Assembly: GCA_919902995.1 (NCBI GenBank)
Contig: CAKKSD010000010.1
Location: forward strand, 2,646 to 26,645
Reading direction: 5' to 3'
Length of the DNA stretch: 24,000 nt
Source: Thermodesulfovibrionia bacterium
GTDB taxonomy: Bacteria > Nitrospirota > Thermodesulfovibrionia > JACRGW01
Every line of letters begins with the position of its first letter. Position 1 is the stretch's first letter. Below the pieces are notes generated by a model. The model was not told the DNA's origin and searched no databases. It saw nothing but the letters and a program-made list of their open reading frames with translations. The translations under genes and the position numbers were made by a program. Positions 2,912-15,585 of the stretch are shown piece by piece.

Positions 2912-2950
2912 TTCCTTAAACACCTTATCCGGTCTACGACTCATAGAGGA
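2912..2950 (-). repeat. JR copy with a near-complete palindromic core (2933-2947) plus tail
   Basis: + strand tctacgactcataga has 7-1-7 arms with one mismatch. The tail ccttaaacaccttatcc aligns with the other copies. Confidence 0.6.
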
Positions 2951-3011
2951 TGCACGGCTGCCCTTGAAACACTTCTGGGTCAATTGTAATCCTGTCTAAG
3001 GTTTTAAACAT
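2934..3011 (-). pseudogene. Truncated DUF433-like gene (N-terminal about 21 codons) fused to the JR core
   Basis: A GGAGGTGG SD is followed by ATG(3011) MFKTLDRITIDPEVFQGQPCI, then LYES*. The R-I-x-x-DP-x-x-x-x-G-x-P-x-I string is the DUF433 opening, but the expected (R/K)GTRI... continuation is missing. Confidence 0.5.
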
Positions 3012-3075
3012 TGTTCCACCTCCTCGTTCCTATTCTAACATCAAATAAGCTGGTTTCAAAATTAAAATATATCTA

Positions 3076-3239
3076 CAACTCTCCCTTAACCGCCTTGTCG
3101 AGTCTATGACCCATTGGGAATGCCCGGTAGCAGGGCGTAAGGTCTTTTTTATTCATTCAAACAACTCCTCCCCCTGCAATTTCTGCGAAATCTTCTGCTG
3201 CAATTTCTGGCTTGTGATGGCCGATGGCTCGTAGAGAGG
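3076..3239 (-). repeat. JR copy C: two tandem units (3076-3118 right-half core + tail; 3119-3155 leader; 3156-3239 left-half core + tail with an internal caatttctg duplication)
   Basis: Aligns with copies A and B nearly base for base across caatttctggcttgtgatggccgatggctcgtagag, and with 304-353 across ctcccttaaccgccttgtcgagtctatgac. Confidence 0.65.
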
Positions 3240-3297: not shown

Positions 3298-3531
3298 TCA
3301 CGCTGCGTGAGTTAAAGATCTGACTGAAATTATATCTGCTGGCTCAACAGGTCTGACTTCTTTATCAGATATTGTAACAACTGCAAGCGTTTCTCCTGAG
3401 GCCTTCACAAACTCGACCTCAAGACCGTCAGGCTCGTAAACCTCTACAACAGTCCCTAAATCCCCAGAACGCAATCCAAAATCAGGTAAATCGTGTATCA
3501 AGACTACACAATCCAGTAGTTTATATTTCAT
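3298..3531 (-). CDS. DUF4926 domain protein (77 aa)
   Basis: MKYKLLDCVVLIHDLPDFGLRSGDLGTVVEVYEPDGLEVEF... fits the DUF4926 pattern as I remember it. It starts 11 nt after the upstream gene ends. Confidence 0.7.
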   Translation of the reverse strand: MKYKLLDCVVLIHDLPDFGLRSGDLGTVVEVYEPDGLEVEFVKASGETLAVVTISDKEVRPVEPADIISVRSLTHAA

Positions 3532-3542
3532 GACTTTCTCTC

Positions 3543-4247
3543 TTAACTTTTAAAACCTTCCATTAAATAACTACCATACCACTTCATATATTCTTCAGTT
3601 TCTTGATCTAAAATTTTACCATTCACAAATTTTAACAGATGGCATAGTAATACCCAATATGGTTCCTTCGAAAGGCATACAGGTTTCTTTTCGCCATAAC
3701 AGAAAAAGGGGTCTAAGCAGTTTCTAATCACAGGCTGAATCATTTCAAACCTTATTGCAGATTCTTCAGGGCAACCGTTTATATCAGGAGGCATATAAAA
3801 TAAGCTTGGATATAAAAATCCCTGGGTTTTTATTATCATTTCCTGGCTATGTGCTGGTTTAAAAGTAAATATAGGTGCGCAAATTAAATATTCTTGAGGA
3901 TTGTCTTTAAACCAACCACTCTCTACACGACCTAATACTACAACAAGTCTACGTTTGCCCTTATAAACATAGAAAAGCTCGCCTTCGCGCAGTTTAAGTT
4001 CTTTTACTGGATAATGTTTTTCATCACCATCGCTATAAGGGCTAATAGCAAATGTAGTGTTTCTTTCATTTCGTGGGTCATATTTAATCATTTTCAGAAT
4101 TTGAGGATGTGTTTCGGGATATGCTATGTGAGAATAAAATAGTTGACCAGGGCGAAAAGCCCAATCATCATCAGGATCTTGGAGAATTTCGTAAAAAGGG
4201 TCATATATTAAATCGACAGAGCCTCTACGAGTCATCCTTTCTTTCAT
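3543..4247 (-). CDS. Uncharacterised 234-aa protein, putative toxin partner of the Panacea-domain protein
   Basis: Its start overlaps the upstream gene by 23 nt. Faint MazF/PemK-like strings are present (GELFYVYKGKRRLVVVLGR ... YLICAPIFTFK). The assignment is inference only. Confidence 0.55.
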   Translation of the reverse strand: MKERMTRRGSVDLIYDPFYEILQDPDDDWAFRPGQLFYSHIAYPETHPQILKMIKYDPRNERNTTFAISPYSDGDEKHYPVKELKLREGELFYVYKGKRRLVVVLGRVESGWFKDNPQEYLICAPIFTFKPAHSQEMIIKTQGFLYPSLFYMPPDINGCPEESAIRFEMIQPVIRNCLDPFFCYGEKKPVCLSKEPYWVLLCHLLKFVNGKILDQETEEYMKWYGSYLMEGFKS

Positions 4248-4911
4248 TCTCCAAGCTTACAGTCACCTGTCCTGCCAACCTGTTATTTGATATTTCATCA
4301 TCCCACACTTTTATACAGTCGAGGTACCCTTTATCTGTAATCTGAAATGTCGGTTCTATTTTAGAGATCTTTTTTATATGAGGAAGGTATTTATTTTTTA
4401 AGGCAGATAATTTCTTTTTGTCTATACGAACATTTTTAACTTTTTCAGGAGACTCCCAGGGTTTTATCTTTGTAAAATCTAACAACTCCCCTCTCTTCGC
4501 ATCCCTCATAGGCTCTGTTTCGAAATAGACATAGTCTAATAATTTATTTAAATCGATATCACCCCATTCTTTGACTACATGATCAATAAGTCTTTTTGCA
4601 TCTGAAGAGAGGTAGATTTCAACCTCTTCTTTTACAAGGCCGTATTGACTGCCAAGTTTACCGCCACCTAAGACGAATGGTATTTCATCTAAATCGGGAG
4701 AGCCAAGAATCGACTCGATTTCGGATGTATAAGGCCCATAATGGTAAAACTGCCATTTCAAATCTGTAAGTCGTTTCTGATGGTGTTTGTAATATTCTAT
4801 CTCAATTAAATAAAGAAGTTTAATAAGTCTCGTTTTCGCAGGAATATTAACATCCTGCTCTTTTGCAGATTTGATGATTTGTTGAATCATGCTCAGCACA
4901 ACTGATTGCAT
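4225..4911 (-). CDS. SocA/Panacea (DUF4065)-domain protein, putative antitoxin
   Basis: 228 aa. The N-terminal KTRLIKLLYLIEIEYYKHHQKRLTDLKWQFYHYGPYTSEI matches the K-L-x-K-L-L-Y...GP(V/Y) Panacea/DUF4065 pattern. Confidence 0.65.
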   Translation of the reverse strand: MQSVVLSMIQQIIKSAKEQDVNIPAKTRLIKLLYLIEIEYYKHHQKRLTDLKWQFYHYGPYTSEIESILGSPDLDEIPFVLGGGKLGSQYGLVKEEVEIYLSSDAKRLIDHVVKEWGDIDLNKLLDYVYFETEPMRDAKRGELLDFTKIKPWESPEKVKNVRIDKKKLSALKNKYLPHIKKISKIEPTFQITDKGYLDCIKVWDDEISNNRLAGQVTVSLENERKDDS

Positions 4912-4957
4912 TTAGTCTTATTTTATCAGAAATTTGGAGAAAAAACTTTTATTTTCT

Positions 4958-5008
4958 TATAATTCTCCCTTAAATGCTTTATCCAGAATACTCGGTATCA
5001 GGGCATGA
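4958..5008 (-). repeat. JR copy (tail plus part of the leader; core deleted)
   Basis: + strand tataattctcccttaaatgctttatccagaatactcggtatcagggcatgac aligns with 3076-3140 and 129-160. Confidence 0.5.
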
Positions 5009-5124
5009 CTCGATTCTTGAAATATATCTGTCCCTTTTTCAGTACAAATTACCAGAATCAAAAAGCAATTTATTAAGTCTGTGATTGTAGGATGTAAATA
5101 TGATGCACATGAAATGATGTACTA

Positions 5125-5547
5125 TTATTTAGATTTTTCTTTAGAAATATATTTATCTATTCTTTCCTCAAGCCTATTGATTCTTTCATTGATTGATTGT
5201 TTTAGTTCTCTGAGATTGGAGTTTGTATGGTTAAGACCTTCTTTTAAAGAAGTATAGTTAGAGACTATAACACCTACGAATATCAAAATTCCTATTATAC
5301 CCCCAACAATGCCTATGATATAGTGGGTTTTTGTTAGTTTTTGCCCCTCTTTAACTGGTTCTTTTGTTAATTGTAGAGGGGCTTGTTCGATGGGTGGAAT
5401 TTTATCTGTTCCATCTAATGCTTCAATAATCGGTATTTCTGTTTCTGCAGTGCTGGAAACCTGTTTCGTAGCAAGTCCCTTACGATAGTCTGACCTCACT
5501 AATTCCTTTGTCTTTCTTCTTGGCGGATTTATTCTTTTACTACCCAT
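5125..5547 (-). CDS. Single-pass membrane protein (140 aa) with a C-terminal coiled coil
   Basis: It has a basic N-terminus, one hydrophobic span (YIIGIVGGIIGILIFVGVIVSNY), then the heptad-like LRELKQSINERINRLEERIDKYI. It overlaps the upstream gene by 8 nt. Confidence 0.6.
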   Translation of the reverse strand: MGSKRINPPRRKTKELVRSDYRKGLATKQVSSTAETEIPIIEALDGTDKIPPIEQAPLQLTKEPVKEGQKLTKTHYIIGIVGGIIGILIFVGVIVSNYTSLKEGLNHTNSNLRELKQSINERINRLEERIDKYISKEKSK

Positions 5548-6283
5548 GAATTTTCTTTACCTCTTCCAGATTAGAAAGATTTGATTTTTTAAGATGCGTA
5601 TCCCAATATTCAATAGTTTCGTTAAAATGGTTTTCGATTAAAACGTTTTTTAAAGTTCTCTGAGGTTCATAATATATTTGGTAGTCAACAATTAATCTAA
5701 TCCTGTCAGGTGGTTTTGTTTCTCCTTCTTCAGTTTTATCCGAGTTAATTTGAATAATCACATTTTTATAGTCTTGTTTTTCTTCTGGATTGACTATTGC
5801 CTCAATAGCAGGGTTTTTAAGAGCAAGTCTCAGAACTAAATTATCCGGGATACCTTTTAGATCAAGGTTTAATAGATTTGTAAAAATAGTCTTGGCTGCG
5901 TTCTCATAACCTTGAAAAAGAAATTGGTTAATTATACCTATTCTATTAATACTTTCAGAACCGCCTGTCAATGGAAGTATTATGTTAACTATCTGTAAAA
6001 ACATTTTTGTAATATCTTCAATGGTTAATTTGGGTTCTGCGTCCATATCACAGGTTAAAATTACTCCGTCTATATTACAATTAACAGAAATAGTGTTTTC
6101 TTTATCGTAAAGAATTATTGACATATTATCAGGCCTTCCAATACGCTCGAAACAATTACCAGGAAATGGGCCATAGCCCTGTAATGGGGCAAGTTTATCA
6201 ACAATTTCTCCAAGAAAATCAGAAACTCTAAATAATCTTTTATGCCGTATTCCAACTATTAGTTTTTCAGAATGCCATTCCAT
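5540..6283 (-). CDS. Uncharacterised 247-aa soluble protein
   Basis: AAGGAG SD before the ATG at 6283. There is only a faint resemblance (INRIGIINQF) to the TIGR04255-type R-I-G-L-R-Y motif, so the protein is not confidently assigned. Confidence 0.6.
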   Translation of the reverse strand: MEWHSEKLIVGIRHKRLFRVSDFLGEIVDKLAPLQGYGPFPGNCFERIGRPDNMSIILYDKENTISVNCNIDGVILTCDMDAEPKLTIEDITKMFLQIVNIILPLTGGSESINRIGIINQFLFQGYENAAKTIFTNLLNLDLKGIPDNLVLRLALKNPAIEAIVNPEEKQDYKNVIIQINSDKTEEGETKPPDRIRLIVDYQIYYEPQRTLKNVLIENHFNETIEYWDTHLKKSNLSNLEEVKKIHG

Positions 6284-6309
6284 TTTATGCTCCTTTTCAA
6301 AGATGTTTT

Positions 6310-6318
6310 ATTATAACA
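6310..6318 (-). promoter_or_regulatory. Extended -10 promoter element for the 247-aa/140-aa pair
   Basis: The minus strand reads TGTTATAAT (TGnTATAAT), about 27 nt upstream of the ATG at 6283. Confidence 0.35.
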
Positions 6319-6424
6319 GATTTATTTTCTCACACTTTAACAGCCATATTTTTAAAAATCAATAGAAATGTAAAATTTATTTCTGCTCTTGCTCTTTATC
6401 TGAAATTATCTATTCTATTATTGT

Positions 6425-7951
6425 TCACCTTCTGAACCTGTTCCTTACAGCAAGGGCAAAGAGGGCGGCTTGTAGGGGAATAAGCAACTTAGCAGCGATC
6501 TTTAAGAACCAATTTGAAGGAATAAAATCAGGCTTTGGTTCAAAAGTAGTATACTGCAACGTAGCTTTTAAGTAGTCCAAGTTCCAGATTTCAGACAACT
6601 CTCGAATTTTAATGACATCATCAGTATATAAAGATTTTATTCCTGTTAAGCCTAAAATAACAGATATAGCAATTATCAGTAAAACGAGTACGATTCCCGC
6701 TCTTAAAGGTCTTTCACCGTAACCGCTCGAAACCCAATAAAGATTTAAGAGATAAAATGAGAAGTTTTTCCAACTGCTTCCTTTTCTTTGCATTTCCTTT
6801 TCGCCATAATGCCAGTTAGAGACTTCATATTCGTTGTGGTCCTCTTTGCATTTTTGTTTAAGCTGTCGATAAAGGGTTTCTACTTTTTCGATTTTAGTCT
6901 TAAAATCCTTATCCTTTTTATTTTTGAAAAGTTCAATTTCATCATATAAAACTTTTCGCCCATCTTTCTTAGGAGGCCACTTGCAGTTTATAAAATCAAA
7001 TTTTCTTAAATCGGAATCCAAGAAGGAGATTGCTTCGAGATTGGCTCCTTCAAATCTGATCTCCTTTTCTATATCGAGAATTGTAAATTCTCCATCATTA
7101 ACAAATTCGCTCTTAAAAAAGTTTGCTTCTTTGACGAATGTAGCATGCCGGAAGTGTGCTTCTCCACCAAATATAGTCCATGCAAAGTCTGCCTCTTCTT
7201 TGAATTTAACATTAAAGAAATTTACTCTCCTAAAGAATTTAGCGTCTGAGAAGTCTGTCTTTTCGATGAATTCAGCCCATGGAAATTCTGCCTCTTCGCA
7301 AAACTCTGCTTTTGAAAAATTCGCCTTTCCATTAAATATAGCCTGGTGTCCATCAGATGAAAAATTTGCCTTTTTAAAGAATTTGGCCTTAGAGAAATCT
7401 GCCAATTGGTTAAATGTAGCCCCTAAGAAGTCTGCCTCTTTGTTGAATATTGACTTTAAAAAGCTTGCTTTTTCGTTAAAGGTGGCATATGCGAAGACCG
7501 TATTTTTGTTAAATTTAGCTTCTGAAAAGTTTGCATATTTACGAAATATGGCTGAAAAAAAGGATGCATTCCCCAGAAATGTGACTAGGAAAAATGCCTC
7601 ACTGTCGAACATAGCTCTTGAAAAGTCTGTATCATCGCTCAAAGTACCTATGAACCATGCTCGTCCGCTGAATGTAGACGATGAAAAGTTAAGACCAAGT
7701 AGAAGATTGTCTTTGCCTAGATCAAAGGTTATATCTCCTTCAAAAACTGTACCTGATAAATTACAGGATTTACTCTCTTTATTTGCTTCATCAATTCTTT
7801 CAAAAATGAGTTTATTAAAATCTTGGAGTGTTATACCCTTTTCTCCTTTAGGTGCATGAAAGATACAATACTCATTGTCTTCTACATCTTTGTAACCAAC
7901 AACAGAAAGATCTCTACACCACTTATATTCTTCAGCCTTACAGCAGGGCAA
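6425..7951 (-). CDS. Pentapeptide-repeat protein with a Cys/His-rich N-terminus and C-terminal transmembrane helices
   Basis: 508 aa with a TTG start (7951..7949) and a GGAGG SD. A long run of A(D/N)(L/F)xx-type repeats (ANFSEAKFNKNTVFAYATFNEKASFLKSIFNKEADFLGATFNQLADFSKAKF...) covers about 7021-7774. The N-terminus is MPCCKAEEYKWC...EYCIFHAPKG. Hydrophobic spans are AGIVLVLLIIAISVILGLTGI and FLKIAAKLLIPLQAALFALAV. Confidence 0.85.
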   Translation of the reverse strand: MPCCKAEEYKWCRDLSVVGYKDVEDNEYCIFHAPKGEKGITLQDFNKLIFERIDEANKESKSCNLSGTVFEGDITFDLGKDNLLLGLNFSSSTFSGRAWFIGTLSDDTDFSRAMFDSEAFFLVTFLGNASFFSAIFRKYANFSEAKFNKNTVFAYATFNEKASFLKSIFNKEADFLGATFNQLADFSKAKFFKKANFSSDGHQAIFNGKANFSKAEFCEEAEFPWAEFIEKTDFSDAKFFRRVNFFNVKFKEEADFAWTIFGGEAHFRHATFVKEANFFKSEFVNDGEFTILDIEKEIRFEGANLEAISFLDSDLRKFDFINCKWPPKKDGRKVLYDEIELFKNKKDKDFKTKIEKVETLYRQLKQKCKEDHNEYEVSNWHYGEKEMQRKGSSWKNFSFYLLNLYWVSSGYGERPLRAGIVLVLLIIAISVILGLTGIKSLYTDDVIKIRELSEIWNLDYLKATLQYTTFEPKPDFIPSNWFLKIAAKLLIPLQAALFALAVRNRFRR

Positions 7952-8049: not shown

Positions 8050-11000
8050 TTACGTCTTTAAAATCCCCCTCACTATCCCATCAATCTCTTTAATCTCCTC
8101 TTGCAGTTCAGCCTTTATCATTTTTCTCAGATTGCCGATGGATGCTGAAACGAGTTCAGCACAAGTTTTTGTGGGAGTGCCTTTTGAGAGGAGCTTTGAA
8201 ACCTTCTTTGTGCATTCTTCGCTGAGTCTTGCAAGTTCGATATGGTCTTTATTTGATGAGTCGAATTCGGGGATTGGGAGTTCCCAGACTTTTTTAACGA
8301 TATGCCTTGGTCCAAAAAGCCCTCTGGCTTGCATTGGTTTTAAGCGTTCATCAATTGTAGGAGAGTTGAGGATCGAACAAAGATAATAAGCCTCAGGCTT
8401 TTTATTTGTCTCATAATAGTACTCGGTATAATCAGACACAAACTCCTGAAGCTCAAATTCCTGATCTTCAATCTCTATTTTTATTTCCTTTCTTTCGACC
8501 ACACACCCACACAAATATGTTGCTGATGTTGGGTATAAAACCTTATATTTAGCCTGCCTTTGCTCTGTCAACTTATGCCTGTAATCAAGCCAGTCAACGG
8601 CATCCATGCTTTCCGCCTTCTCTCCTCTTTTCTCTTCCCACAATTTCTGTGCCTTATGGAGCCATTTTGAGAGATGGACGAAACCTTTTTTGCTTGCCTT
8701 AGATTCTTTTATGATAAGGTATTCCCCTGATTTGTCATGCTGAACTCGTTTCAGCATCTCTTGAGACCCTGAACCAAGTTCAGGGTGACATTTTAGATCA
8801 ACTAAGGGGAGCACAACAACCCTGAAATCAAGATAGCCGAATGGCACTATATCAGTCGAAAGGAGGGTTGCATAAAGAAATTCCTTCTCAATATTTCCCT
8901 TCAAAGATATTCCTTTGTAGGTTTCTTTCGCAGTCTTTTCAGAAGCCTCTGATGTCTCGACATAAGGCGTTGATGGGTTAATCCCGAACATCGAATGGGA
9001 TTTTATATCCACGAACCAGAAATTGCGAGGGACGATTGTAGCGCCTTGTTTGAACGCTGTATGATAGGGACTCCGCTGTATTCCAATATTTCCTTCTTCG
9101 GATTGTGAGAGAAAACTCCTCTCGCCTTTAATGCTTACATATAGATTCCCTTCGTCAACTTTTAAAGATTCTTCCGCCTCGATAAGTCCCGTATTTTTAC
9201 TTTCAAGAATCCCTGATATAAATTCAGCCTTATATGGCGAAACCGTGCCAATCCCTTTCTTTGCGATAAAAACAGATGTCGGGACATTGAATAAGGGCTT
9301 GACCTTCTCTATATCCCATATCTCGGTAAATCCAAGTTTTAGCGGATACTGCTGGCTTCTAAAGGTATGGTGCTGATCCGCAGTAAATATACTCCTCGGC
9401 ATTATGAACGCAATCATTCCTCCATTCTTGAGGTAGAGGTCCGCGGTTCGCAGATAAAACAATGTTGCAAGCTCCATATGGGTAATCAACTCAGCCTTAA
9501 CCTTCATCTTTTCGCCTGCAGATACGCCGCTGAGGAGTTTGTATGTATTCACAATCATTTCCTTCAGAAACTTCTGGTATTCGCTTTTATCAACATAACG
9601 ATAACTAAGCCACGGCGGATTGCCGATGATGACGTCAAACCTCTCTTTGAGGAATAATGGCTTGTACATATTTTTCATAATATATGCCCAGATGCTGTCC
9701 TTTTCTTCCTCAATAAGCTCTTTCATCGCAATCGCTGTGTAGAAGAGCATATCAATAGTATTTTTGTCGCTGACCTCCGGAATATGCTGTCTCAAAAAGT
9801 TTTCATAAGTTTCAAGGGTCGTTCCCCCCTTGCCTGCAAAATGTTTTGCAAATTCTTTTGTAGTGTCTATAACGGAGTCGTATGTTGAAGGGTCATTGAT
9901 TATAGTGTCAGGGATATATACATCCTTTTCAGCAATTTTTGTATGATAACTTGGAACACGGGTCAGCAAACTATGCTCCATCTTCTCTTCAGGCGGGTTT
10001 ATGGAGTCTGCAAGATACACAGGGATCTGAACCCTCTTCGTGCCTCTTTTTTTAATAAGGTCTCCGAGGGCAAGGAGATAATTGGTCTTTGCAGTGATTA
10101 CAGCAAGGGGATGAATGTCAATGCCTACAACGTTATTGATTATATGTTCAAGGGTTTCCTGAGTTTCATAGAATTCTGTCTTTTGACTCGTTGGAGATAA
10201 CTTTTTTGTTCCAAGTGCATGCCTTTTAAATCTTATGGCCATGTAAAGGAATGTCCCCGAACCGCAGGAAGGATCGAGGACAGAAACGGAGGGATCGTCC
10301 TTTAGAATATGCTCCACCATCCTCTGCGCAAGCCAGTCAGGTGTATAGTATTCTCCGAGGTCATGTCTTGTTTCAGGGTCAACAAGTTCCTGATAAAGGG
10401 ATTTCAGGATGTCTTCTGAAAGTTCTCTCAGGTTGTAATTTGCGAGCTGGTTAATCAGTTTTCTCGAAATATCAAGTCCTGTCTCTTTGGTTTGCTCTCT
10501 TACAATCCATGAAAAGAAGTCCTCTTCGAGGAAGTTGTCAATCCCCTGCTCGATGAAGAATTCGCCCTCAAGGATTTTAATAATTATTTCTGAAGAGGGA
10601 ACCGCGCTGTTTTCCGAAAGACGCATATAGACAATGAGCTTTGTAAATACTGCAAGGTAGGAATGTCTGAGAAAAAGTTCTTCATCTGCGACAAGACTTC
10701 CGTAGGTAATCCTCAGATACTTTTGCCAGTTATCGTATATGACCTTAAAATCGCTTCTGTCCTTTAGATTATTCCATGTTCCTTTAAAGACATTAAGGCT
10801 ATATCTGAAGGCAGGGCTTTTTATTCCGAAGTCCCTGACTATTTCTTCGGTCTTAGGATGAAGCTGCGTTTTTCTGAAGAAATATCTGTCAAGCCAGAAA
10901 TACGCTTGATATGGTTCTATCTTTGTTAAATCTATCTTTTCTATCTCCTCAAGCTCGACCTCATTATTGGTTTTTATCTTGGGCAAATAGGCATAAAATA

Positions 11001-11406
11001 AAATCCCGTCTGTCGCAAGGCATAAGTAGCTTGCCTTCTCTCCTGCCTGTATAAGATAGGATGTATAGCGTTTTAATTGTTGCGCTGCTTCATTCAGGCT
11101 TTTTCTTAAATCCTTCTCGAATTCTATTATCAGATTGCCGTAAAGGGCATCGATCTTGCCTCTCAGGATAATATCCTTCTGCTTTATGCTTACATACTTT
11201 TCAACACCATGAAGATAGTCCTCAACAAATCCGGCATCAACATTCTCAAAGATGTCTTTTAATAAGATAAGAAACCTCTGGGCTTTAGCAGGTTCGGTAT
11301 TTAACTGTGAGATTTGCTCTATGTATTCTTTAAATTTCTGAGATATGTTCTGCTCTGAGATGTCAGGTATTCTTGAAGGCTTTTCGGTGAGTTTAGTCTT
11401 CTTCAT
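8050..11406 (-). CDS. Fused type IIG-like restriction-modification enzyme (N-terminal nuclease-like domain, gamma-class N6-adenine methyltransferase, C-terminal target-recognition domain)
   Basis: 1118 aa. It carries GEYYTP (motif X), VLDPSCGSGTFL (motif I, aa 376-387) and FDVIIGNPPW (motif IV, aa 590-599). The N-terminal GKIDALYGNLIIEFEK is like the D...E-x-K nuclease motif of MmeI/Eco57I-type enzymes. The C-terminal YYLCSILNSP...WELPIPEFD resembles an HsdS/TaqI-like recognition domain. Confidence 0.8.
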   Translation of the reverse strand: MKKTKLTEKPSRIPDISEQNISQKFKEYIEQISQLNTEPAKAQRFLILLKDIFENVDAGFVEDYLHGVEKYVSIKQKDIILRGKIDALYGNLIIEFEKDLRKSLNEAAQQLKRYTSYLIQAGEKASYLCLATDGILFYAYLPKIKTNNEVELEEIEKIDLTKIEPYQAYFWLDRYFFRKTQLHPKTEEIVRDFGIKSPAFRYSLNVFKGTWNNLKDRSDFKVIYDNWQKYLRITYGSLVADEELFLRHSYLAVFTKLIVYMRLSENSAVPSSEIIIKILEGEFFIEQGIDNFLEEDFFSWIVREQTKETGLDISRKLINQLANYNLRELSEDILKSLYQELVDPETRHDLGEYYTPDWLAQRMVEHILKDDPSVSVLDPSCGSGTFLYMAIRFKRHALGTKKLSPTSQKTEFYETQETLEHIINNVVGIDIHPLAVITAKTNYLLALGDLIKKRGTKRVQIPVYLADSINPPEEKMEHSLLTRVPSYHTKIAEKDVYIPDTIINDPSTYDSVIDTTKEFAKHFAGKGGTTLETYENFLRQHIPEVSDKNTIDMLFYTAIAMKELIEEEKDSIWAYIMKNMYKPLFLKERFDVIIGNPPWLSYRYVDKSEYQKFLKEMIVNTYKLLSGVSAGEKMKVKAELITHMELATLFYLRTADLYLKNGGMIAFIMPRSIFTADQHHTFRSQQYPLKLGFTEIWDIEKVKPLFNVPTSVFIAKKGIGTVSPYKAEFISGILESKNTGLIEAEESLKVDEGNLYVSIKGERSFLSQSEEGNIGIQRSPYHTAFKQGATIVPRNFWFVDIKSHSMFGINPSTPYVETSEASEKTAKETYKGISLKGNIEKEFLYATLLSTDIVPFGYLDFRVVVLPLVDLKCHPELGSGSQEMLKRVQHDKSGEYLIIKESKASKKGFVHLSKWLHKAQKLWEEKRGEKAESMDAVDWLDYRHKLTEQRQAKYKVLYPTSATYLCGCVVERKEIKIEIEDQEFELQEFVSDYTEYYYETNKKPEAYYLCSILNSPTIDERLKPMQARGLFGPRHIVKKVWELPIPEFDSSNKDHIELARLSEECTKKVSKLLSKGTPTKTCAELVSASIGNLRKMIKAELQEEIKEIDGIVRGILKT
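8141..8161. repeat. Hairpin repeat (tgctgaa-acgag-ttcagca), a perfect 21-bp inverted copy of 8738-8758
   Basis: The reverse complement of 8141-8161 is tgctgaactcgtttcagcatc, identical to 8738-8758 when checked base by base. Confidence 0.7.
8733..8790. repeat. Double-hairpin palindromic element embedded in frame in the RM gene (aa 873-892, CHPELGSGSQEMLKRVQHDK)
   Basis: Hairpin 1 is atgctgaa-ctcgt-ttcagcat (8737-8757). Hairpin 2 is accctgaac-caa-gttcagggt (8766-8786). The outer tgtca (8733-8737) and tgaca (8786-8790) are inverted. The peptide motif resembles translations of small palindromic repeats I have seen in many genomes. Confidence 0.6.
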
Positions 11407-11820
11407 CTATAGTTTTCTTTCCTTAATAAAATCTTCTGGAGTAATAATTTCAATATCTTTGTATTTCTTCACAGACAGCAAACTCTTATCACCTGTGATT
11501 ACAAATTTTGCATTAGCGGATAGGGCACATTCAATGAACTTGTTATCTTCTGGATCATTTGTAACTTTAAGATATTTTTTATAGGCGTAAATATCAGAAT
11601 ATGCAAGAACAAATTCTAAAATGTTTGTCTGAATCTCTTGAGGGAATTCAAGTTTTGGATAAGAAACAGAACGACTAAGCTCGGCGAGTATCTCTGAAGA
11701 AATACAATTTCTTATAACACCTTTTTCTAATAACCCGATGATTTTTAAAGGCTTGCCACCCCATCCAAAAGCTGAAATGAAAATATTTGTATCAATTACT
11801 ACTTTTTCGCCCTTGCCCAC
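11407..11820 (-). CDS. vapC: PIN-domain toxin (TIGR00305-like)
   Basis: 137 aa with VVIDTNIFISA at the N-terminus and a C-terminal FVITGDKSLL motif. Its stop codon TAG (11409..11407) directly abuts the RM gene ATG (11406). Confidence 0.8.
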   Translation of the reverse strand: MGKGEKVVIDTNIFISAFGWGGKPLKIIGLLEKGVIRNCISSEILAELSRSVSYPKLEFPQEIQTNILEFVLAYSDIYAYKKYLKVTNDPEDNKFIECALSANAKFVITGDKSLLSVKKYKDIEIITPEDFIKERKL

Positions 11821-12392: not shown

Positions 12393-12599
12393 TTATTTTT
12401 TACCTGTAAGAGATACCTCTATGGGATGATCTTTAAGAGAACTTACTTTTAGTATCGAGAACCCAATAACATTGCCTTCCATATCAACCTTTTCCATTAT
12501 CTGGTCAGATTCTGTTTCTTTGAAGTAACCTTCCTTCTTTTCGAACATAACCTCAAGATAATCTCCTTCAGGGTCATACCATACTTTTACTTTCTCCAT
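12393..12599 (-). CDS. DUF2283 family protein (68 aa), putative antitoxin
   Basis: KVWYDPEGDYLEVMF...DMEGNVIGFSILKVS is the DUF2283 pattern. It overlaps the upstream gene by 13 nt. Confidence 0.75.
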   Translation of the reverse strand: MEKVKVWYDPEGDYLEVMFEKKEGYFKETESDQIMEKVDMEGNVIGFSILKVSSLKDHPIEVSLTGKK

Positions 12600-12892
12600 A
12601 TCACATCTCCTTTTTTAATGCTATCTGTAAAATAGGCTGTGACAATAAAGGCATCAGCCTCTTTATATTTTACCACAATGCAAAGATATTTATTCCCTAT
12701 AGAAAGATTCTCATAATATCTGGAACATAACCTCACTTTTTCATCGGTTCTTGATTTAACAACAATATCAGGACTTGAAAGAGTCTCGTTTATTTTTTCA
12801 GTATGTATGACCATCTCAGGATGCTCTTTTATATGGGCGAGCCTTTCCTCCGTCAGGCGTATAATGTTTCCATTATAGTCAGTTAAATTCAT
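12587..12892 (-). CDS. Putative toxin (101 aa), possibly a RelE/BECR-fold nuclease-like protein
   Basis: IRLTEERLAHIKEHPEM...TLSSPDIVV...KYLCIVVKYKEADAFIVTAYFTDSIKKG resembles small DUF2283-associated toxin-like proteins. Fold assignment is from memory only. Confidence 0.45.
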   Translation of the reverse strand: MNLTDYNGNIIRLTEERLAHIKEHPEMVIHTEKINETLSSPDIVVKSRTDEKVRLCSRYYENLSIGNKYLCIVVKYKEADAFIVTAYFTDSIKKGDVIWRK

Positions 12893-13182
12893 TCATCCTT
12901 TTCCTTTAAAACCTGATTAACAATCCTTCTTGCAATCTCAAAGGCAGCGGCGATCCTGATAATCTTTACATCCCCGAGCCCTTTAAACTCAAGAAATTTC
13001 TCCAGCGGCTGATTTGCCATGCCTTTGAATGACCCGAATTTATCGAGGATTTCTTCAGCTATTTTCTCGGCTGATTTTCCTTTTGTGCCTGTGGAAATAA
13101 GAATAGATAAAAGTTCAGCATCTGTTAGTGATTCAGCCCCATGTTCCCTAAGTTTACCCCCTGGATGTGTCCACGTTTTCAT
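12889..13182 (-). CDS. radC: RadC/UPF0758 N-terminal helix-hairpin-helix domain only (97 aa), with no JAB/MPN domain
   Basis: LREHGAESLTDAELLSILISTGTKGKSAEKIAEEILDKFGSFKGM...FKGLGDVKIIRIAAAFEIARR matches the RadC N-terminus. The ORF ends before any HNHPSG-type region and overlaps the next gene by 4 nt. Confidence 0.8.
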   Translation of the reverse strand: MKTWTHPGGKLREHGAESLTDAELLSILISTGTKGKSAEKIAEEILDKFGSFKGMANQPLEKFLEFKGLGDVKIIRIAAAFEIARRIVNQVLKEKDE

Positions 13183-13286: not shown

Positions 13287-13700
13287 TTACTCTTTAGTTT
13301 GTTTCCAGAATTTCAAAAACTCATCGGGTATCATGATTTTAAGTCTTTTTGTATATTTCCCCTTAAAATGACGCTTATTGCCTGTAATCAAAACCTTTGC
13401 AGAGCCGTTCAAAGCCACCTCAACAAATGGGATATCATCTTCATCTATAAGCGGTTCATTGATGGGAATGGAAATTATTTTTATACCTTGTGCTTCAAAA
13501 AAATCTAAAAGATCATTAACATCCTTTTCTTCAAAGCCGAATTTTGGTCTTAAAAGAACCTCACGGTATTCAAAAAAAATCCTGTCATCATAGAGTATCT
13601 GTAGTTCTCCAAGTAAAACCATATCAAGGATTCTCGCTGCATTTCCAAAGGGTGTTATAAGTGCTGAAACCAGGATGTTGGTGTCCAGAACTATTAACAC
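13287..13700 (-). CDS. vapC: PIN-domain toxin (TIGR00305-like)
   Basis: 137 aa with MLIVLDTNILVSAL and a C-terminal LITGNKRHF motif. Confidence 0.8.
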   Translation of the reverse strand: MLIVLDTNILVSALITPFGNAARILDMVLLGELQILYDDRIFFEYREVLLRPKFGFEEKDVNDLLDFFEAQGIKIISIPINEPLIDEDDIPFVEVALNGSAKVLITGNKRHFKGKYTKRLKIMIPDEFLKFWKQTKE

Positions 13701-13984
13701 TATTTCCTCATCTTTCTTGTAGCAGTGATCTCTGTTTCAATCTCCTTTGTGGTAAACTTAGACAGCCCTTTCTGAATAGCAGCTTTACGCATCCTTGATA
13801 CAGCAAGTTCTGCCTTTGCACGGCGGAGAGCCATTAATGCATCATCAAGAGCAACGTCACTCACACCAGTTAAAAGCGCTATAGGTTTGCCATTTGATGT
13901 AATTACCACTTCCTTGTTCTTTTCAAGGCTATCCCAAACACTGCCTGGTCTTATTCTAAAATCTCTCACCGTTACAAATTTCAT
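13700..13984 (-). CDS. Phd/YefM-type antitoxin
   Basis: MKFVTVRDFRIRPGSVWDSLEKNKEVVITSNGKPIALLTGV is the Phd/YefM pattern. I prefer the ATG at 13984 (GGAGGTG SD at 13990-13996) over the GTG at 14002 in the ORF track. Confidence 0.75.
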   Translation of the reverse strand: MKFVTVRDFRIRPGSVWDSLEKNKEVVITSNGKPIALLTGVSDVALDDALMALRRAKAELAVSRMRKAAIQKGLSKFTTKEIETEITATRKMRK

Positions 13985-14018
13985 TTTTTCACCTCCATCC
14001 ACTTCTTGTCCTACAATA

Positions 14019-14994: not shown

Positions 14995-15585
14995 CTATAG
15001 CTGTCTTTTTTGACTGATAATCCTGTTTAAATATTTTTGTGTATACTTCGGGAACCTCTTTGAGAATTCTTTCAGTGCGACCATTGAAATCCTCTTTATG
15101 TAGAGTTCATCTAAATCTAATGACCCAATTCCCCTTGACACAAGATAGAGAAGGTCAAGAAATGCCTTTTCAGGTTTCGCAATATAGATCCCACCCTTCA
15201 TCTCATAGCCCCAGAAGAGGTCTTTCTTAATCTGCCTGAATTCTATATCCCTCCCTTCTATCGTAAACCTCTTTGTCTTTCTTGTAGTGGCAAAGGTTAT
15301 CGTGTAGGGTATGAGTGTAAGGATGCCATATCTTGACAGCACCGATTCAAAAGAAAGGTAGTTCGGCATGTAAAGGGATGCTGCAATCTTTTCTATTTGT
15401 GCCTTTGCTGTAAAGGGGCGATAAATACCTGCGCCTATTCTTTCTAAAATCCCTCTATCAACAAGGCGTTTAATCGTTACATAAAGACTCTTCCTTGAAA
15501 GCCCGGTTATCTTCTCTATATCAGAGATGGAATAAAAGGGACTGTTAAGCCGTTCCAGACCCTTTATAAGTTCTATCGCCTTCAT
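14995..15585 (-). CDS. abiEi: AbiEi-family antitoxin/transcriptional regulator (wHTH plus C-terminal domain)
   Basis: 196 aa with ISDIEKITGLSRKSLYVTIKRLVDRGILERIGAGIYR (wHTH), then PNYLSFESVLSRYGIL and IAKPEKAFLDLLY, typical of AbiEi. Confidence 0.75.
   Translation of the reverse strand: MKAIELIKGLERLNSPFYSISDIEKITGLSRKSLYVTIKRLVDRGILERIGAGIYRPFTAKAQIEKIAASLYMPNYLSFESVLSRYGILTLIPYTITFATTRKTKRFTIEGRDIEFRQIKKDLFWGYEMKGGIYIAKPEKAFLDLLYLVSRGIGSLDLDELYIKRISMVALKEFSKRFPKYTQKYLNRIISQKRQL

Follow-up and report, generated by a model that had tools for sequence, protein, structure and literature searches.

What does a Panacea-domain protein neutralize when the gene beside it belongs to no recognized family, and does a third gene set closely behind the two take any part in the arrangement? 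This question is raised by a locus of a Thermodesulfovibrionia bacterium (GenBank assembly GCA_919902995.1), from which we analyzed a stretch of 24,000 nucleotides (nt) of contig CAKKSD010000010.1 (positions 2,646 to 26,645), hereafter the window. Three open reading frames (ORFs) follow one another there on the reverse strand, at the places and in the order that a preliminary description had listed: panA (4225-4911), encoding a protein of 228 amino acids (aa); panT (3543-4247), encoding 234 aa; and, third, a gene for a 77-aa DUF4926 protein (3298-3531). As the ORF list has it, panA and panT overlap by 23 nt, with the panT ATG at 4247, and a gap of 11 nt separates panT from the DUF4926 gene. 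In this trio the preliminary description had seen a possible new Panacea-neutralized toxin, perhaps within a tripartite system. In our assessment it is likely that positions 3548-5006 hold a mobile type II toxin-antitoxin cassette of two genes, panA-panT, in which PanT is a toxin of MazF type and of which the DUF4926 gene is not a component. This answer builds on fold and domain assignments, conserved residues, gene linkage and cassette boundaries that the analysis demonstrates.

The first protein belongs to a known family. It had been described as being of the Panacea (DUF4065) type, and PanA indeed matches PF13274 (SocA_Panacea) over residues 29-131 (E=4.4e-11; 44.1 bits against a cutoff of 25.7), followed by a C-terminal extension of about 95 aa. 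This extension bears a DK...IWDE motif that is found in most homologues and is missing in two (loci L027 and L037). Against the NCBIfam SocA equivalog NF047745, PanA scores only 15.7 bits, far below the cutoff of 190. Panacea domains neutralize toxins either directly or via appended domains (PMC10440598), and in the pairs that have been studied PanA and toxin join in a complex (Kurata et al., 2022, PNAS; PMC8832971). As a separate observation, residues 4-130 of PanA weakly match (E=0.011) positions 410-536, the C-terminal part, of the PADLOC profile PDLC03184 for Type I specificity subunits. This resemblance suggests that some HsdS proteins may carry a fused Panacea-like domain, which would fit the restriction-linked position of the cassette described below.

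The start of the second gene deserves a brief comment. In most homologues the first residue corresponds to M5 (MTRRG...) of the 234-aa protein. The gene therefore probably starts at the ATG at 4235, with a product of 230 aa and an overlap of 11 nt (ATGACTCGTAG) with the panA stop. Translation of panA and panT together is implied under either start.

The panT product had been described as lacking a recognized family, and so it proved: the 234-aa protein has no match in Pfam, NCBIfam, PADLOC, PHROGs or PDB sequences. Iodotyrosine dehalogenase, the sole PDB sequence to surface with either the protein or a narrow panT profile (A1) as query, was rejected as a relative, its E-values of 0.1-0.2 being treated as chance. 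A word-seeded search with the protein found only 18 relatives, all unnamed, and a word-seeded profile search for RefSeq or published relatives returned 28 metagenomic proteins, none of them from RefSeq. When all of 1.84 billion representatives were searched with a profile, 314 panT-family clusters (50% identity) emerged at E<=1e-3, 143 of them at E<=1e-10, the matches being mostly 210-270 aa long and aligned over nearly their full length. The sources of 20 sampled clusters were metagenomes or metagenome-assembled genomes (MAGs) in every case (20/20), none with a RefSeq accession, and tblastn found no panT match in 72,556 plasmids and 50,697 phage genomes. A broad profile (A2) represents the family with 116 sequences.

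Structure prediction, a check that the preliminary description had called for, led to the MazF family by two routes. AlphaFold2 returned the same topology from an 18-sequence alignment (model 1; predicted local distance difference test, pLDDT, 78.5; predicted template modeling score, pTM, 0.70) and from the 116-sequence alignment (model 2; pLDDT 95.4; pTM 0.90). When these models were compared with PDB by Foldseek, the top 26 hits of model 1 (probability 1.00; template modeling score, TM, 0.56-0.71 per MazF length) and the top 31 of model 2 (probability 0.97-1.00; TM 0.45-0.70 per MazF length) were all MazF-family proteins. The structures retrieved for both models were almost exclusively MazF, EndoA, MoxT or PemK; CcdB was absent from the top 50 of both searches, and no other fold competes. 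A viral fold library gave only weak matches, to long phage 'PemK-like' proteins (TM<=0.35). Many of the Foldseek alignments run over 170-200 columns although the targets have about 115 residues, and the MazF core therefore appears to be interrupted by a large insertion. In the inferred layout, beta1 (about residues 35-43) would be followed by a family-specific insertion (about 44-95), a K98-x-R100 strand, a C123-A-P125-x-F-T128 strand, the strands bearing S163, E168 and Q171, a MazF-like C-terminal helix (194-209) and an extra helix (215-233). The faint MazF/PemK strings noticed at the outset, KGKRRLVVVLGR and YLICAPIFTF, are present in the translation and lie on two core strands of the MazF fold.

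The residues that define these strands are strongly conserved among the 116 family sequences. K98 and R100 are invariant (116/116), as is an acidic residue at position 90 (E/D; 116/116), and G34 is kept in 111. P101 follows R100 in 80 of the sequences; P125 is present in 115, F/Y127 in 112, and S/T128 in 97, with Gly in its place in 11. The insertion is just as constant: in every one of the 116 members, the first strand is separated from the K-x-R strand by 47-70 residues (median 56). Beyond residue 193 the sequences continue for a median of 43 residues, and in the window protein this tail is modeled as helical.

Profile alignment tentatively relates these residues to the MazF active site. For this comparison BsMazF, EcMazF and Kid served as the reference set, their sequences having been confirmed as identical to PDB 4me7, 3nfc and 1m1f. 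With the broad profile, hhalign against the three-sequence MazF/Kid alignment, a thin template, gave a probability of 73.8% (E=2.9e-5; 87 columns), and hmmsearch found BsMazF at E=1.5e-5 (Z=1). The hhalign alignment pairs GKRRLVVVLG with GGVRPVLVIQ, putting R100 on the catalytic Arg25 of BsMazF, and ESAIRFEMIQ with DSVILLEQIR, putting S163 on Ser73 and E168 on Glu78; it also places the C-A-P-I-F-T strand of panT on MazF beta3 and the subsequent helix on the MazF C-terminal helix. On aligned sequence and modeled structure, the 234-aa protein is a strongly diverged, enlarged MazF/PemK-fold domain and a putative toxin.

Linkage to an antitoxin-type gene is a second line of evidence, and its scope depends on the way in which loci were collected. 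The genome scan for panT loci used the narrow profile and therefore covers the close subfamily only (96-36% toxin identity); together with five distant members (about 22-26%), it gives 19 distinct contexts, the window included. A same-strand Panacea ORF of 183-246 aa stands upstream of the toxin gene in 18/19 contexts, at spacings from a 41-nt overlap to a 21-nt gap, so the co-occurrence that the preliminary description had proposed to survey is borne out. Full-length PanA homologues (about 88-25% identity) precede the toxin in 17 contexts other than the window, and all 18 upstream ORFs, that of the window among them, match PF13274 at E<=0.01. The two proteins diverge in parallel (PanA identity falls from 89% to 37% as that of the toxin falls from 96% to 36%), and the gene neighborhoods of the copies are otherwise unrelated. 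A two-gene order conserved across species with the genes <=100 nt apart, the criterion used by Kurata et al. (2022), is what panA-panT displays. The hosts comprise Nitrospirota, Nitrospira, WOR-3 and Latescibacterota MAGs and a Promethearchaeota archaeon. The archaeal copy (locus L027; toxin P0069, a distant member, from a Promethearchaeota/Asgard MAG) has a short PanA of 183 aa; one flank holds a Type ISP restriction gene and the opposite flank an NYN-domain gene together with a phage-type integrase, an arrangement indicating that a mobile element carried the pair across domains of life.

The boundaries of the cassette can be read from its closest relatives. In blastn comparisons, a reverse-strand block that begins at 3548 or 3551 and extends to 5006 is conserved at the nucleotide level, with 90.8% identity over 1463 nt to a Nitrospirota MAG, the closest genome (L020), and 92.7% over 1456 nt to five groundwater contigs (L015-L019). 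The block consists of panA, the toxin gene and about 95 nt upstream of panA, and it stops at the toxin stop codon. At its 5' edge the block retains what is left of a type I restriction gene, hsdS (4962-5006, reverse strand), namely about the last 15 codons at the 3' end (translation ...HALIPSILDKAFKGEL, closing with ...ILDKAFKGEL). The same tail in L020 closes an intact 391-aa Methylase_S (HsdS) protein encoded after an N6_Mtase HsdM, so that the order there is hsdM-hsdS-panA-panT. Type IIG, Type ISP or methyltransferase-helicase genes stand immediately ahead of other copies of the cassette, which often lies within or beside restriction-modification loci, a position that hints at a role in phage defense.

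The mechanism that we propose for panA-panT is as follows. PanT retains the strand of the catalytic arginine as an invariant K-x-R (usually K-x-R-P) together with a C-x-P-x-[FY]-[ST] strand, and bears a beta-rich insertion of 47-70 residues after beta1 and an additional C-terminal helix. We infer that it acts as a sequence-specific endoribonuclease and thereby arrests translation. PanA, presumably made just ahead of PanT from the overlapping frame, would neutralize the toxin by direct binding, by analogy with validated PanA antitoxins, whether via the Panacea domain itself or via the semi-conserved C-terminal extension. A bolder version of this proposal, which we regard as speculative and rather doubtful, would have the insertion define a separate MazF subclass, as a Panacea docking surface or an RNA-specificity module, and would make the cassette a restriction-linked abortive-infection switch of uncultured bacteria and Asgard archaea in which Panacea senses a phage cue.

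Set against what has been published, the pairing itself is familiar. Panacea domains accompanied by toxins of PemK/MazF type have been reported in clusters T5, T6, T8 and T25, with WP_116809181.1, WP_083201923.1, WP_085051346.1 and WP_026646888.1 as the respective references (Kurata et al., 2022). The toxins of T25 are annotated as PemK, and those of T5, T6 and T8 are 'hypothetical proteins' without CDD hits that were tied to EndoA/PemK/MazF by HHpred only; T8 includes a Nitrospirae genome (PMC8832971). The PanT proteins of P. moraviensis (T6) and B. ruminantium (T25) inhibit protein synthesis and are neutralized by PanA (PMC8832971). The locus described here is like these systems in that Panacea stands upstream, the order is A|T, overlaps are short and the toxin is unannotated. 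It differs in that the published MazF-like representatives reach HHpred probabilities of 99.5-99.7%, whereas the panT family reaches 74%, with a 116-sequence profile against a thin template. Compared with T5, T6, T8 and T25 by description, panT is probably a new unannotated family within the known class of PanA:MazF-like pairs. The earlier suggestion of a new Panacea-neutralized toxin is supported insofar as the family is unannotated, but its novelty was overstated: Panacea together with MazF-like toxins devoid of CDD hits had already been published, and two such pairs had been validated experimentally (PMC8832971).

The likeness to canonical MazF, PemK, Kid and EndoA (PF02452; PDB 4me7, 3nfc, 1m1f) extends over the core fold and the Arg-Pro beta2 strand with its invariant Arg. 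The C-x-P beta3 strand of panT resembles CVPCTT of E. coli MazF, and the alignment further includes the S..E..Q strands and the C-terminal helix. Unlike these toxins, however, panT is twice the size, has 47-70 aa in place of the short beta1-beta2 loop, ends in an extra helix, has no PF02452 match, is partnered by Panacea and not by MazE, PemI or Kis, and has its candidate catalytic Thr off the aligned position. In canonical MazF the beta1-beta2 loop controls access to the active site, and MazE displaces it. An enlarged MazF beside Panacea also has a precedent of sorts among plasmids, where searches with PanA found only cyanobacterial SocA-domain/PemK pairs whose toxins belong to a different family. 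In one of them, the Nostoc pNLP1 pair WP_104910153/WP_104910154, Panacea likewise lies upstream of a MazF enlarged by an insertion after beta1, here of about 40 aa. Yet the Nostoc-type cyanobacterial toxins (200 aa; 'PemK/MazF family toxin') score 42-44 bits against PF02452 and carry a PGAP name, while panT has no such match; their insertion is Cys-rich and zinc-ribbon-like, and the panT-family profile hidden Markov model barely detects them (E=0.003, Z=1).

The consequences of these comparisons are modest. The MazF superfamily gains an unannotated family of several hundred clusters, and Panacea a further partner; the pairing of Panacea with MazF-like proteins is extended to candidate phyla and an Asgard archaeon, and a new Pfam or NCBIfam model would be justified. 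The family-wide insertion at the MazF control loop makes panT a reasonable structural target with respect to how one antitoxin domain serves many toxins. The current picture of toxin-antitoxin biology is unchanged.

Several observations weigh against a MazF-type two-gene cassette and must be set beside those that favor it. None of 116 full-length panT-family members matches any Pfam model, PemK (PF02452) included, and a HMMER profile search of PDB sequences finds no MazF. The narrow profile reaches a probability of 0.1% against MazF in hhalign, and the Foldseek E-values of the panT models are just 1e-3 to 1e-2. The catalytic Thr48 of BsMazF (Thr52 of EcMazF) aligns with Ile126 of panT, the conserved S/T128 standing two positions further on. 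Experimentally, the T8 PanT of F. xanthum was non-toxic in E. coli (PMC8832971). One context, that of the 329-aa protein P0015 (L004-L006), is without a Panacea neighbor. Finally, the DUF4926 gene is probably co-transcribed with panT in the window, because it lies 11 nt downstream and no terminator-like site was found between the two. P0015, which was seen in several independent metagenomes, joins its toxin to an N-terminal HSDR_N_2 fragment of 95 aa (HsdR N-terminal, nuclease-like) and sits within a toxin-antitoxin island; it may represent a copy in decay or one under different control.

The alternative that fares best under these observations, although we consider it unlikely, is that PanT has a MazF/CcdB-type barrel and is no RNase, being instead a CcdB-like gyrase poison, a non-catalytic nucleic-acid binder or a non-toxic protein. 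It can draw on the imperfect conservation of the catalytic Thr position, on the replacement of the active-site-gating loop by a large insertion and on the silent T8 toxin. A gyrase poison of this kind would nonetheless have to be reconciled with two fold searches in which no CcdB structure is retrieved among the best 50, and a non-catalytic protein with an arginine that aligns to the catalytic Arg and, like K98, never varies. A harmless protein sits poorly with the strict linkage to an antitoxin-type gene in overlapping frames, which implies something that needs neutralization, and the MazF-like PanTs that act in published assays inhibit translation (PMC8832971).

The DUF4926 gene bears on the second alternative, a tripartite system in which its product would be a functional third component (a second antitoxin, a chaperone or a regulator). 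Its 77-aa protein matches PF16277 over the full length (E=2.2e-20; 72.2 bits against a cutoff of 29.1), and its position is suggestive, on the same strand and directly behind the toxin gene. In plasmid records from Tolypothrix, Meiothermus and Nitrosococcus, DUF4926 likewise lies directly downstream of, and overlaps, a DUF6883 gene, and a 2026 preprint places DUF6883 among RNase toxins, under the name BECR-Tox3, and presumes DUF4926 to be the immunity protein that goes with it. The present locus is like that pair in carrying a full-length DUF4926 directly downstream of a toxin gene, and unlike it in that the upstream toxin is MazF-like. Accessory third genes are moreover known for some PanAT clusters (PMC8832971). 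Against this, tblastn shows DUF4926 to be absent from 18/18 other toxin contexts, including those of toxins 96% and 92% identical to that of the window, and nucleotide homology ends at the toxin stop codon, which leaves DUF4926 outside the conserved block. In L020 a repeat of about 60 nt begins some 35 nt after the toxin stop, whereas in the window the same repeat (3163-3220, reverse strand) comes after DUF4926; because the repeat directly follows the toxin in L020, DUF4926 is an indel between the toxin gene and the repeat. Solitary DUF4926 genes are found, too, in plasmids of Thermus, Deinococcus and Mycobacterium; DUF4926 goes unmentioned in PMC8832971 (supplements included) and PMC10440598. 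A search of the window for a DUF6883 remnant (tblastn with three DUF6883 proteins) found none, the best match having E=1.6. Since DUF4926 is absent from relatives, lies outside the block and is usually paired with DUF6883 or solitary, the tripartite idea is unsupported and, in our judgment, improbable to a high degree. The gene looks like an orphan immunity-type neighbor and not a conserved component of panA-panT, and close spacing of a small third gene does not by itself make a tripartite system.

A SocAB-like type VI arrangement, in which PanA would be a proteolytic adaptor handing the toxin to a Clp-type protease, is least credible of all and can be set aside: the Panacea domain was first characterized in SocA and the window does contain a gene for a ClpP-like SDH-type serine protease (463-1485), but PanA falls far short of the SocA equivalog, PanT is MazF-like and bears no relation to SocB, the protease gene is neither part of the cassette nor present in related loci, and the PanAs that have been studied act through toxin complexes (PMC8832971), by direct interaction or through appended domains (PMC10440598).

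Beyond the two-gene cassette, the window (1-24000) is a dense toxin-antitoxin and defense island. In addition to the protease gene it holds a HepT/MNT pair (2220-2838), a pentapeptide-repeat protein gene (6425-7951), a Type IIG restriction-methylase gene (8050-11406), a PIN gene (11407-11820), a PBECR2/DUF4258 gene with UPF0758_N (12587-13182), a PIN gene with Phd/YefM (13287-14002) and an AbiEi gene (14995-15585). No convincing promoter was found for panA, motif counts for promoters and terminators in a scan of the window being no higher than in shuffles, and Rfam identified no RNA family in the window.

The repeat of about 60 nt (CCATCACAAGCCAGAAATTGCAG...GCAGAAATTGCAGGGGGAGTTGTTTG) that follows DUF4926 is dispersed. 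Further copies lie at 2133-2190 and 103-142, all three being on the reverse strand, and L020 has its copy at 3739-3800. Three copies in the window compare with 0.03 expected by chance, and two of them follow a toxin-antitoxin module. The repeat terminates in a GGGGGAG motif shortly ahead of an ATG, and looks like a shared 5' leader or promoter. An identity as an integron attC site was considered and rejected, as its single-strand DNA folds no better than shuffles (z -0.8 to +0.5).

Some minor features of the two closest loci complete the picture. Downstream of the cassette in L020, positions 4619-6550 encode a 643-aa protein with a QueC-like domain and a DpnII/MboI-type restriction endonuclease domain; synteny with the window on the grounds of a shared 643-aa ORF length was discarded, the two proteins being unrelated. 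Downstream of DUF4926 in the window, a collapsed 27-aa ORF (3073-3156, reverse strand) ends in ...LDKAVKGEL*. Between DUF4926 and the MNT/HepT pair there is also a truncated ORF of 25 aa (2934-3011, reverse strand; MFKTLDRITIDPEVFQGQPCILYES), which we take to resemble the N-terminus of a DUF433 antitoxin-type protein and which would then be a decayed gene fragment.

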